64,000 bases of DNA from Escherichia coli. GTDB taxonomy: Bacteria > Pseudomonadota > Gammaproteobacteria > Enterobacterales > Enterobacteriaceae. Shown here in pieces: positions 21,068 to 54,070 of this stretch. The stretch's first letter is position 1. Each line of letters opens with the position of its first letter. The position numbers were made by a program, and so were the translations under genes. Under the pieces are notes generated by a model. That model saw nothing but the letters and a program-made list of their open reading frames with translations, ran no database searches and had not been told where the DNA came from. Location: the NCBI RefSeq assembly GCF_003018255.1, contig NZ_CP027440.1; one strand, 5' to 3'.

Positions 21068-21177
21068 GTTTATTCTCTTTCTGAATATAAAAATGAACCC
21101 TCAACGCTTCCCTCAATGTTTCGGGAGCCATGCGGGTTCAATCATACACGGGAAGCGAGGCGCTTCCCATCACGTTA

Positions 21178-22296
21178 TTATTTTTCAACCTGCTGAACGT
21201 CAATTCGACGCGCTTCGTCCAGCTGACTGGCTTTCGCACGAATGCGCGCTTCCAGCTGATCGATCATATCGTTGTTGTCCAGACGGTCTTTGCGCACGCC
21301 ATCTTCATAGAGGCCGCTTTTCTTGTTGCCGCCGGTGACGCCGAGTGTAGAAACCAGCGCCTCACCAGGGCCATTCACCACGCAGCCGATAATCGAAACG
21401 TCCATCGGAGTGATGATATCTTCCAGGCGTTGCTCCAGCGCGTTAACCGTACCGATAACATCAAATTCCTGACGCGAACAGGTCGGGCAGGCGATGAAGT
21501 TGATCCCGCGCGAACGGATACGCAGCGATTTCAAAATATCGAAACCGACTTTGATCTCTTCGACCGGATCGGCCGCCAGCGATACGCGCAGCGTGTCGCC
21601 GATGCCTTCAGACAGCAGCAGACCTAAACCAATAGCGGATTTTACTGCCCCGCTACGCGCACCACCGGCTTCGGTGATCCCCAGATGCAGCGGCTGATCG
21701 ATTTGTTTTGCCAGCAAACGATAAGACTCAACAGCGAGGAAGACGTCAGACGCTTTCACGCTGACTTTGAACTGATCGAAGTTCAGGCGATCGAGATGAT
21801 CAACATGACGCATGGCAGATTCCAGCAACGCCTGCGGCGTCGGTTCGCCATACTTTTCTTGCAGATCTTTTTCCAACGATCCGGCATTAACGCCAATACG
21901 GATCGGAATGTTTTTATCGCGCGCACAGTCAACCACCATGCGAATACGCTCTTCATTACCGATATTGCCAGGGTTAATACGCAGACAATCGACGCCGTAT
22001 TCCGCTACTTTCAGCGCAATGCGATAGTCGAAGTGGATGTCAGCCACCAGCGGCACGTTAACCTGCTGTTTGATGAGTTTGAACGCTTCTGCCGCGTCCA
22101 TCGTCGGTACGGAGACACGGACGATATCAGCGCCAACACGTTCCAGCGCCTTGATTTGATTGACCGTTGCTTCGACGTCTGTCGTACGCGTATTGGTCAT
22201 GGACTGTACGGCGATGGGAGCACCATCGCCAATCGGCACATTCCCAACGTAAATACGTGTTGATTTTCTACGTTGAATTGGAGCCTGGTTATGCAT
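21178..22296 (-). CDS. ispG: 4-hydroxy-3-methylbut-2-enyl diphosphate synthase IspG (372 aa)
   Basis: Starts [36 protein letters not shown]. The [4Fe-4S] cysteines CPTC...C are in the C-terminal domain. Confidence 0.97.
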
Positions 22297-33825: not shown

Positions 33826-33841
33826 GCTTTTAACAGGCAAT

Positions 33842-33869
33842 AAAAAACCGCCGAATCTGGCGGTTTTTT
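33842..33869. terminator. bidirectional rho-independent terminator (sseA on +, sRNA copy 1 on -)
   Basis: aaaaaa-ccgcc-gaatct-ggcgg-tttttt: a GC stem flanked by an A-run and a T-run. Confidence 0.8.
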
Positions 33870-33941
33870 ATTGCTGGTCTGGTTCGCGGCCTTTCCAGCA
33901 GATTGGCTTGTGTTGCATGAGCAACGCAGGTGCTTCACAGC
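33842..33941 (-). ncRNA. candidate ~100-nt sRNA, copy 1 (RyfB/RyfC/TimR-like paralog with diverged 5' seed)
   Basis: - strand promoter TTGACA (33971-33976), 17 bp, GAGTAT (33948-33953), identical to copy 2. The transcript would end at the 33848-33863 hairpin plus U-run. The 5' end is predicted only from the promoter position. Confidence 0.5.
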
Positions 33942-34163
33942 AAAGCAATACTCGCCAGTAACTCTCTTTTTGTCAAGCGAAAGAGAGTAATCATTGTTTA
34001 TTTAGCGTATTATCGACACCGGCCCTTTCCGCCGTGTTCGGTAATAAAATAACCTAGCTTATTAGTCCGAATTCAGACAAATATAAACAAATCCTGCTCA
34101 AAATTAAAAATACTAACCGGTAAAAGATATTACTTAAACATGTAAATTCACTTTCCTTTAAAA

Positions 34164-34263
34164 AACAAAAAACCGCCAAAATCAGGCGGTTATTTGTTGC
34201 TGGTTTGGTTCGCGGCCTTTCCAGCAGATTGTATTACCGTAGTAATGCAAGCGCGTCTCAGCG
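34164..34263 (-). ncRNA. candidate ~100-nt antitoxin sRNA, copy 2 (RyfB/TimR-like), divergent from ryfA
   Basis: - strand promoter TTGACA (34293-34298), 17 bp, GAGTAT (34270-34275). The terminator is ccgcc-tgatttt-ggcgg followed by TTTTTTGTTTTTT. The predicted 5' end cgctgagacgcgcttgc is perfectly complementary to 34407-34423 in the ryfA 5' UTR. Confidence 0.6.
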
Positions 34264-34486
34264 GACACAATACTCGCCAGTAACTCTCTTTTTGTCAAGT
34301 AAAAGAGAGTTATTATTGTTCTGTTAGTGTATTATCCACTGCGGACCTTTCCGCCGTCTCGCAAGCGGGCGCTGGCTTAAGGAAAGGATGTTCCGCGACC
34401 GTTAGAGCAAGCGCGTCTCAGCGCTTGCTATCGCGGCAATATCGCCAGTGGTGCTGTCGTGATGCGGTCTTCGCATGGACCGCACA

Positions 34487-34612
34487 ATGAAGATACGGTG
34501 CTTTTGTATCGTACTTATTGTTTCTGGTGCGCTGTTAAGCGAGGTAAATAATAACCGGAGTCTCTCCGGCAACAATTTACTGGCGGTTAACAACCTTCAG
34601 AGCAGCAAGTAA
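34487..34612 (+). CDS. 41-aa hydrophobic small protein, TimP-like type I toxin candidate
   Basis: ATG...TAA translates to MKIRCFCIVLIVSGALLSEVNNNRSLSGNNLLAVNNLQSSK. The N-terminal segment is hydrophobic and TM/signal-like. It lies inside ryfA, is below the ORF-track length cut-off, and has no obvious SD, which is common for tightly repressed type I toxins. Confidence 0.55.
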   Translation: MKIRCFCIVLIVSGALLSEVNNNRSLSGNNLLAVNNLQSSK

Positions 34613-34618
34613 GCCCGA

Positions 34619-34645
34619 ATGCCGCCCTTTGGGGCGGCATATTTT
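34619..34645. terminator. rho-independent terminator of ryfA (also abuts the convergent sseB stop)
   Basis: atgccgccc-tttg-gggcggcat followed by ATTTT. Confidence 0.8.
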
Positions 34646-41876: not shown

Positions 41877-41900
41877 TGCTCTATAAACTCCGTACATCAC

Positions 41901-41987
41901 TCAATGCAAGGAACCAGGCTACCGGCTGGATGTACGACCGTGTTTACGGAGTGTTTAGCACTCCGGCCTGATTCTGAATTCTTTTTA
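41901..41987 (-). promoter_or_regulatory. structured iscR-iscS intercistronic region
   Basis: This 87-nt spacer contains, for example, the stem-loop cggagtg-tttag-cactccg (41947-41965). In E. coli this spacer and the iscS start are the established target of RyhB-dependent differential decay of the isc mRNA. I did not map the pairing site. Confidence 0.4.
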
Positions 41988-53938: not shown

Positions 53939-54070
53939 GCCGGATGCGGCGTGAACGCCTTATCCTGCCTACCGTTCCAACACCAATTGTAGGCCTGATA
54001 AGACGCGGCAAGCGTCGCATCAGGCATCGTGCGCCGAGTGCCGGATGCGGTGTGAACGCCTTATCCGGCA
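53939..54070. repeat. BIME with three REP units between yphA and yphB
   Basis: gccggatgcggcgtgaacgccttatcc (53939-), gtaggcctgataagacgcggcaagcgtcgcatcaggc (53989-) and gccggatgcggtgtgaacgccttatccggc (54040-). Confidence 0.85.

Follow-up and report, generated by a model that had tools for sequence, protein, structure and literature searches.

Introduction

The closest described relative of the locus studied here is found in Salmonella, where the gene ryfA was renamed timP by Andresen et al. 2020 (PMC7667032) and where the 5' region of the divergent small RNA (sRNA) TimR (STnc2070, RyfB1) pairs with an 18-nucleotide (nt) stretch in timP's 5' untranslated region (UTR), as demonstrated with compensatory mutants and in vitro translation (PMC7667032). 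According to the same authors, every enterobacterial timP examined has such an sRNA upstream (PMC7667032). The Salmonella leader folds into four stem-loops (SL1 to SL4): TimR binds in SL2 and protects its loop, and the Shine-Dalgarno (SD) sequence is locked in SL4 (Eleftheraki & Holmqvist 2024, PMC11228461); repression by TimR involves no mRNA processing (PMC11228461). An interaction of site 2 with site 4 in the leader frees the SD, and a pairing between sites 1 and 2 is inhibitory (Eleftheraki et al. 2026, PMC13000454). TimR repression is not a simple occlusion of the ribosome-binding site (RBS) and acts by disrupting a pseudoknot-dependent structural switch. Here we examine a 64,000-nt stretch of the Escherichia coli contig NZ_CP027440.1 (assembly GCF_003018255.1; hereafter the window), for which an initial annotation, made from the letters alone, had proposed that the ryfA locus at 34164-34645 is a type I toxin-antitoxin (TA) pair.

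Related pairs of RNAs have been studied outside Salmonella as well. Northern blot or RNA-seq has revealed TimR homologues in Salmonella, uropathogenic E. coli (UPEC), avian pathogenic E. coli (APEC) and Shigella dysenteriae (PMC7667032, PMC13188913, PMC5333039), with positive Northern blots in UPEC CFT073 and APEC CH138 (PMC13188913). In S. dysenteriae, a short 'variable region' of ryfA overlaps the complementarity to the sRNA and sets the specificity of the interaction: RyfB1 lowers RyfA1 and does not lower RyfA2 (PMC5333039).

We find that the locus is very probably the E. coli timPR type I TA module, situated between sseA and sseB. This module is already published and annotated (Andresen 2020; Eleftheraki & Holmqvist 2024; Eleftheraki 2026; RyfA1/RyfB1 in Shigella, 2017), so that the reading is correct but not new. 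Its value as first given is one of confirmation, in that a TA module was correctly reconstructed from raw sequence with details that agree with published timPR. The only fresh point is what appears, from its promoter, body and terminator, to be a second and differently addressed antitoxin sRNA gene just upstream of timR.

Results

The timP gene and its peptide

The toxin side of the module consists of the following elements.

34341..34645, + strand: timP mRNA (formerly 'ryfA sRNA'), matched at full length by Rfam RF00126
34330..34335, + strand: probable -10 hexamer of timP, TATTAT, 5 nt upstream of the Rfam ryfA start and assigned from the sequence
34487..34612, + strand: timP coding sequence (CDS), 41 amino acids (aa) plus stop, from NCBIfam NF040796 and the RefSeq CDS
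34619..34640, + strand: timP intrinsic terminator with a 9-base-pair (bp) stem that includes 7 GC pairs, from a terminator scan

The match to RF00126 (ryfA) at 34341-34645 scores 312.5 bits, compared with a gathering score of 80, and covers model positions 1-296 of 296. The hydrophobic open reading frame (ORF) of 41 codons at 34487-34612, which the initial annotation had singled out and likened to Salmonella TimP, is indeed present and coincides exactly with the E. coli RefSeq CDS named timP, 'small toxic inner membrane protein TimP'. Its product, MKIRCFCIVLIVSGALLSEVNNNRSLSGNNLLAVNNLQSSK (ATG at 34487, stop at 34610-34612), matches the NCBIfam model NF040796 (toxic_TimP) over its full length with 80.5 bits, where the cut-off is 45 (E = 7.5e-23). 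The N-terminus is hydrophobic and signal-like, with a mean Kyte-Doolittle value of 2.86 over residues 5-17; among aligned homologues this N-terminus, MKIRCFCIVLIVSGAL, is kept across genera and the C-terminus is variable. When the 41-aa peptide was used as the query of a protein search, the matches were Escherichia and Shigella TimP only.

The list of ORFs also contains a 45-aa version that begins at an upstream in-frame ATG at 34475 and that is used in one UPEC paper. This longer start is unlikely because the ATG at 34475-34477 sits in the loop of SL4 and is replaced by AAG in S. enterica subsp. diarizonae; the MKIR start at ATG 34487 is conserved everywhere. The genes sseA and sseB flank the timP region, which 5425 of the 5426 complete E. 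coli genomes contain.

The adjacent sRNA gene and its match to the timP leader

Upstream of timP, on the opposite strand, lies a predicted sRNA gene with its own transcription signals.

34165..34263, - strand: timR, proximal cognate antitoxin sRNA of ~99 nt, from the promoter and terminator in the sequence
34270..34298, - strand: timR promoter, TTGACA 34298..34293, 17-bp spacer, GAGTAT 34275..34270
34171..34191, - strand: timR terminator hairpin, 7 bp with 5 GC pairs, tail TTTTGTTTTT, from the terminator scan
34247..34263, - strand: TimR seed, 5'-CGCUGAGACGCGCUUGC-3', complementary at 17/17 positions to the timP leader

The 5' end of timR was placed ~7 nt downstream of the -10 element and its 3' end at the T-run of the terminator, positions that together give an sRNA of ~99 nt. 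Both signals had been called in advance, the promoter as TTGACA-17 bp-GAGTAT and the terminator as a strong one ~100 nt away; the former is conserved in 19 copies of the gene and the latter is found at 34191..34171. A consensus promoter scan missed the promoter because GAGTAT matches TATAAT at 3/6 positions and the threshold was 4. On the + strand the same terminator hairpin is also terminator-like, and there it stands at the 3' end of the element IS128, described below. Across the 19 aligned sRNA genes, the -35 CTTGAC is invariant, the -10 GAnTAT is conserved, and a hypervariable seed starts 7-8 nt past the -10. The first hairpin of the sRNA co-varies in these copies (GUUGC/GCAAC versus AUUAC/GUAAU), and it is followed by a body, GGAAAGGCCGCGAAC, that is invariant in all 19, and then by the terminator.

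A separate observation concerns the promoter region. Perfect 12-bp inverted repeats, TAACTCTCTTTT / AAAAGAGAGTTA, at 34281-34312 and 33959-33988 are centred on the -35 of each of two timR promoters (the second promoter belongs to the distal gene introduced below). The repeat is found in A- and C-type modules, as named below by their seed alleles, and is absent from B-type modules and from those of Citrobacter and Salmonella. It could serve both divergent promoters as an operator, or form a hairpin that shields timP from transcription arriving from upstream.

The link between the two genes is a repeated 17-mer, GCAAGCGCGTCTCAGCG, which is found on the + strand at 34247-34263 and again at 34407-34423, just as first noticed. 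Our repeat search of the window also recovers this pair. There is no third match in the 64 kb even at 2 mismatches; 0.05 occurrences are expected, and two or more were seen in 0 of 100 shuffles. One copy is the complement of the sRNA 5' end and the other lies in the timP leader. The TimR target at 34407-34423 is located, as originally described, 64-80 nt upstream of the timP ATG, which in mRNA coordinates is +67..+83, the equivalent of the Salmonella site around G76. To quantify this pairing we used seed-only duplexes, full-length RNAduplex predictions of sRNA against leader being uninformative since they allow huge interior loops. The seed pairs with the leader at -44.0 kcal/mol, compared with -25.0 +/- 3.0 kcal/mol for shuffled seeds (minimum -36.2).

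One further candidate contact between the two RNAs was considered and rejected. The invariant sRNA motif GCUGGAAAGGCCGC can pair with the timP 5' end GCGGaCCUUUCC at -22 kcal/mol. In S. enterica subsp. diarizonae, however, the mRNA side reads CCACCUCC and the sRNA carries no compensating change, and the best duplex between sRNA body and UTR (-24.8) equals the shuffle mean (-24.5 +/- 3.3), with 44% of shuffles as good.

A conserved leader that contains the target

The minimum free energy (MFE) fold of the leader has four stem-loops (z = -4.05), whose elements are as follows.

34341..34396, + strand: SL1, with pseudoknot site 1 CGCUGGC at 34370-34376, from the fold
34397..34402, + strand: site 2, GACCGU, which complements the SL4 5' arm, from the alignment (function from PMC13000454)
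34406..34429, + strand: SL2, 9-bp stem and 6-nt loop, AGCAAGCGC-GUCUCA-GCGCUUGCU, from the MFE fold
34430..34463, + strand: SL3, whose loop carries pseudoknot site 3 GCCAGUG at 34444-34450, from the fold
34464..34483, + strand: SL4, 7-bp stem, with the SD GGA at 34477-34479 in the 3' arm and site 4 GCGGUC as the 5' arm at 34464-34469

The TimR target occupies the 5' arm, the loop and 3 nt of the 3' arm of SL2. The proposal that the UTR copy of the 17-mer sits in its own 9-bp hairpin (34406-34429) holds up: this hairpin forms in the MFE fold and corresponds to the published SL2. The accompanying idea, that the hairpin presents its loop to the sRNA, agrees with the protection of the SL2 loop by TimR (PMC11228461), and we note that the loop of the TimR 5' hairpin, UGAGAC, faces the SL2 loop, GUCUCA.

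As a check of consistency we asked how well these pairs are kept in an alignment of 18 sequences. Overall, 92.8% of the cells are paired, compared with 37-47% when the partners are slid against each other. The 7-bp pseudoknot between sites 1 and 3 is 100% paired, with one pair varying among G.U, A-U and G-C, and the 6-bp pairing of sites 2 and 4 is likewise 100% paired. Two pairs of the SL2 stem show compensatory changes, and all 7 pairs of SL4 are both 100% paired and invariant. For sites 1 and 2, the candidates for the inhibitory pairing of the inactive conformation, a weak duplex is the most that can form (-8.5 kcal/mol here, -2.9 to -9.7 in homologues).

Seed and target change together between species

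Conservation of the match in related genomes had been set out by the initial annotation as a test of the pairing. We anchored 80 species-level loci on SseB and searched them for ryfA by iterated nhmmer. A full or nearly full ryfA adjoins sseB in 17 of the 80 loci (Escherichia, Shigella, Salmonella, some Citrobacter and Pseudocitrobacter), and 2 further loci retain a 3' fragment only (E. albertii, where the contig ends there, and C. sedlakii). In most loci of Enterobacter, Klebsiella, Raoultella, Leclercia and Lelliottia, and in some of Citrobacter, the iterated search detected no ryfA adjoining sseB; the presence of the module at this site is therefore patchy.

The covariation set comprises 18 loci with 19 modules from Escherichia, Shigella, Salmonella, Citrobacter and Pseudocitrobacter. 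In each genome, a stretch ~95 nt upstream of the ryfA start is repeated at about +66 of the leader, and the lineages differ in what this repeated stretch is: GCAAGCGCGTCTCAGCG, GCAGGCACCCCACAG, GCAGGTG(C/T)TTCACAGC, ACGCAGGCGCACCTCAG, CGCAGGCACGCCGTAGTG or CGCAGGCACACCACAGT. At least five different seed/target sequences thus occupy fixed positions. Cognate seed/target pairs have exact matches of 9-18 nt (15-18 nt in 11 of the 19 modules), compared with about 4-9 nt shared between different seed types and up to 12 between related seed variants. The weakest cognate pairs are those of C. youngae, C. pasteurii and Pseudocitrobacter, in which the longest exact match is 9 nt and 14-17 of 22 positions agree. 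Judged from these alignments, seed and target co-vary between species at constant positions, and complementarity, the property put to the test, is kept.

A second sRNA gene with a different seed

The intergenic region upstream of timP contains a tandem duplication in which 33842-33905 resembles 34168-34231 (86%) and 33946-34035 resembles 34268-34357 (87%). Two more elements are found there.

33842..33941, - strand: distal timR paralogue, intact, from the tandem repeats and the sRNA alignment
34001..34209, + strand: IS128, Rfam RF00125, 258 bits

The distal timR has a promoter of its own (TTGACA 33976..33971, GAGTAT 33953..33948), the conserved sRNA body, and a terminator at 33837-33874 that it has in common with sseA. 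Its seed ('allele C') is the complement of GCAGGTGCTTCACAGC at 33926-33941 and differs from the proximal seed (allele A); it has no target in the window, and the rest of the 64 kb offers it no match of at least 12 nt. The neighbouring IS128 has a timP-type promoter and the same first ~17 transcribed nt as timP (34019-34035 compared with 34341-34357), continues as unrelated AT-rich sequence with no ORF, and ends at the bidirectional terminator of proximal timR. These features suggest that IS128 is probably the stump of the timP gene of a distal module. The initial annotation had overlooked the second sRNA gene.

A K-12-type strain was used for comparison. Over the 818-nt spacer both sRNA genes are nearly identical between the strains, and ~10 differences cluster in 24 nt of SL2. 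The K-12 target, GCAGGUGUUUCACAGC, pairs contiguously with the distal seed over about 20 bp, including one G.U (-39.4 kcal/mol); with the adjacent seed it pairs imperfectly (-32.7 kcal/mol), three of the five changes being tolerated as wobbles. Chimeric 51-mer queries, each specific for an allele, were used to count these configurations in the 5426 complete E. coli genomes, plain BLAST identity bands being too coarse for separating them; all of the counts are lower bounds.

Seed A with target C: at least 1559 genomes
Seed A with target C and distal seed C (K-12 type, which includes MG1655 at 100% identity): at least 1535 genomes
Seed A with target A: at least 2976 genomes
Seed A with target A and distal seed C (the type of this window): at least 204 genomes
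Allele B pieces (seed or target): at least 580 genomes

Other strains have arranged the same pieces differently. Strain 4FM (locus L005, 933-2112) has two complete timR/timP modules, one B/B and one C/C, and between them an 87-nt fragment of sseB that is annotated as a pseudogene. Its module of C-seed and C-target is complete, with the same G.U as in the K-12 pairing. This two-module arrangement is a different duplication from the IS128 type. The single-module strains CUVET17-1136 (L003) and O145 (L004) have spacers of 492-499 nt, compared with 818 nt in the window, and in them seed A or seed B is fused to an sRNA 3' end and terminator of the distal (sseA-proximal) type. The 326-nt difference in spacer length is the repeat period, which suggests that two timR copies recombined through their conserved bodies and left a 326-nt deletion or, in the opposite direction, a duplication.

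Putting these observations together, we tentatively propose, while giving the idea somewhat less than an even chance, that E. coli has two TimR genes with different 'addresses' and that lineages re-address the single timP mRNA by replacing ~10 nt of SL2. As part of the same proposal, and with the same reserve, the adjacent sRNA (seed A) would be the partner of timP in this window and the distal sRNA (seed C) an intact orphan. A text search of the timPR, UPEC and APEC papers turned up no description of the two-sRNA arrangement, and a literature search for links between IS128 and ryfA, and for data on a second TimR from RNA interaction by ligation and sequencing (RIL-seq) or from ProQ studies, yielded nothing relevant.

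Rfam 15 contains no family for the TimR sRNA, and a permissive scan gave sub-threshold chance matches on terminator hairpins only. Because RefSeq annotates E. coli timP without its antitoxin and Rfam 15 lacks a TimR family, timR is invisible to standard pipelines. Elsewhere in the window, Rfam places three elements on the minus strand: sroE (21087-21178), the iscR stability element (41878-41987) and naRNA4 (53992-54070).

Discussion

How the module may work in this strain

The type I TA reading is supported by Rfam, NCBIfam and RefSeq, by the published pairing of TimR and by covariation. Overexpression of RyfA slows the growth of MG1655 (PMC4606813), which is indirect evidence for toxicity in E. 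coli. The locus has what is generally expected of such a system: a hydrophobic toxin of less than 60 aa (41 aa) and an RNA antitoxin with the potential to pair with its mRNA; repression itself would follow by analogy with Salmonella. For the mechanism we combine what is described here (the elements in the sequence, the families they belong to, the conserved structure and the covariation of seed and target) with the toxicity, membrane targeting, structural switch and TimR repression reported in the Salmonella literature. We infer from this analogy that the same steps operate in this strain, with a kissing interaction as the first contact.

In this scheme, the timP mRNA would encode an inner-membrane peptide of 41 aa whose signal-like N-terminus stays uncleaved, of the kind whose overproduction in Salmonella makes the membrane leaky. 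With the SD locked inside SL4, translation would require a two-part structural switch: a 7-bp pseudoknot between SL1 (site 1) and the loop of SL3 (site 3) would free site 2, whose pairing with site 4 (the 5' arm of SL4) would then expose the SD. TimR, transcribed from 34263 to 34165, would pair through its extreme 5' end with 17 nt of SL2. First contact would probably be loop to loop (UGAGAC with GUCUCA), in keeping with the published protection of the SL2 loop (PMC11228461), after which SL2 would be opened. Binding of TimR would destabilise the pseudoknot and, as in Salmonella, block initiation without mRNA processing.

Weighing the alternatives

By the same analogy, E. coli TimP would be toxic or membrane-damaging and repressed by TimR, and several observations count against this picture or limit the support for it. 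Peptide synthesis, toxicity and repression have been demonstrated for the Salmonella version only (PMC7667032), and even there deletion of timR raises TimP and does not slow growth (PMC7667032). Deletion of timR in APEC has little effect, and the authors of that study say that toxicity in E. coli has yet to be established (PMC13188913); for S. dysenteriae ryfA1, Fris et al. saw no protein product (PMC5333039). On the side of our own data, the -10 of timR is weak by consensus (3/6) and its transcription start is placed from sequence, and the structure controls are biased, since this sequence is itself the source of the structure and the species in the alignment are close relatives; these controls are consistency checks rather than independent proof. 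One way to account for the genetic observations is that RyfA in E. coli is mainly a regulatory or dual-function RNA, with TimR as its RNA partner or sponge and an ORF that is physiologically irrelevant or rarely translated, an explanation that we consider unlikely but take seriously. The UPEC and APEC studies ascribe the ryfA phenotypes to the RNA (PMC8205139, PMC13188913); the UPEC ryfA mutant, with its phenotypes in stress resistance, fimbriae and virulence, is still complemented by ORF-disrupted ryfA variants (PMC8205139), and overproduction of RyfA1 in S. dysenteriae eliminates the ompC mRNA (PMC5333039). A purely non-coding role is difficult to reconcile with an ORF that Escherichia, Salmonella, Citrobacter and Pseudocitrobacter have all kept, with the conserved hydrophobic N-terminus and variable C-terminus of a coding sequence, and whose peptide passes the TimP protein model. 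The conserved control of translation (the SD in an invariant SL4, the pseudoknot, the pairing of sites 2 and 4) would make little sense in a non-coding RNA, and expression of Salmonella TimP in E. coli is toxic (PMC13000454). Nor do the two roles exclude each other.

The pairing itself could be questioned on the grounds that the region is a tandem duplication with blocks 86-87% identical, and that duplication yields same-strand repeats, so that the 17-nt repeat might have arisen simply because this intergenic region, rich in repeats, underwent local duplication or gene conversion, with no functional pairing. The 17-mer, however, lies outside the duplicated blocks and links the 5' end of the sRNA to SL2, at different registers of the repeat unit; in other species the seed changes along with its target between flanks that do not change, and in Salmonella compensatory mutagenesis proves the pairing (PMC7667032). 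Given the seed-target covariation, we regard this explanation as refuted for practical purposes. It is slightly less far-fetched, though still very improbable, that both sRNA genes repress timP in this strain, with the distal copy cross-reacting with the target of the proximal one. Promoters, bodies and terminators are intact in both genes, and the K-12-type target pairs to some degree with both seeds at the energies given above. Against this, the duplex of the distal seed with the leader of this window reaches -29.5 kcal/mol, within ~1.5 standard deviations of the shuffled mean and short of the shuffled minimum of -36.2, and all five allele differences are true mismatches for the distal seed on this target.

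What two addresses would mean

With the locus read as a timPR module that has one cognate and one orphan sRNA, the practical consequences lie in how E. coli experiments are interpreted. Provided that both sRNAs are expressed, it is the distal gene and not the neighbour of timP that would be the functional TimR of K-12; if the proposal is true, orphan antitoxin sRNAs could act as spare or cross-immunity antitoxins. Because strains differ in which sRNA gene matches timP, deleting 'timR', or working in K-12, may take away the wrong partner or just one of two, and this could help to explain the mild timR phenotypes reported so far. The observation of two antitoxins and a re-addressed target is a modest lead, and it matters for work on timPR and ryfA in E. 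coli.

Comparison with known systems

Salmonella timPR, the comparison first proposed for this locus, is alike in its sseB-adjacent locus type, in its families (RF00126, NF040796) and in its divergent sRNA of ~100 nt, whose 5' end pairs with 17-18 nt of SL2. The leader elements agree as well: four stem-loops, the pseudoknot of sites 1 and 3, the pairing of site 2 with site 4, and the SD in SL4. The two differ in the length of TimP (41 aa here, 38 in Salmonella), in the C-terminal half of the peptide, and in the seed/target, which is GCAAGCGCGUCUCAGCG here and CGCAGGCACACCACAGU in S. enterica subsp. diarizonae. Between sseA and timP, Salmonella has STM2534, whereas this type of E. coli has the second sRNA gene and IS128. 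As for other names in the literature, ryfB and ryfC of E. coli K-12 are, we presume, old designations of the unrelated shoB/ohsC locus, and a comparison with them would for that reason mislead.

The ryfA1/ryfB1 and ryfA2/ryfB2 pairs of S. dysenteriae (Fris 2017, PMC5333039) resemble the present locus in being tandem modules, each with a divergent sRNA of ~100 nt. S. dysenteriae keeps two complete ryfA genes, whereas here the distal module would have lost its timP, of which IS128 remains, and kept its sRNA gene. Fris et al. read the ryfA/ryfB RNAs of S. dysenteriae as non-coding.

More distant parallels are tisB/istR-1, shoB/ohsC and zorO/orzO, which have no sequence or family relationship to timP. 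Like timPR, they consist of a small hydrophobic membrane toxin and a divergent sRNA without true antisense overlap, with 17-20 nt of complementarity situated well away from the start codon in the 5' UTR, and with the RBS buried in structure. They differ in how the mRNA becomes active: theirs depend on nucleolytic processing at the 5' end and on a ribosome standby site, which the antitoxin blocks, whereas the activation of timP is purely structural, by way of a pseudoknot that TimR disrupts (PMC11228461, PMC13000454).

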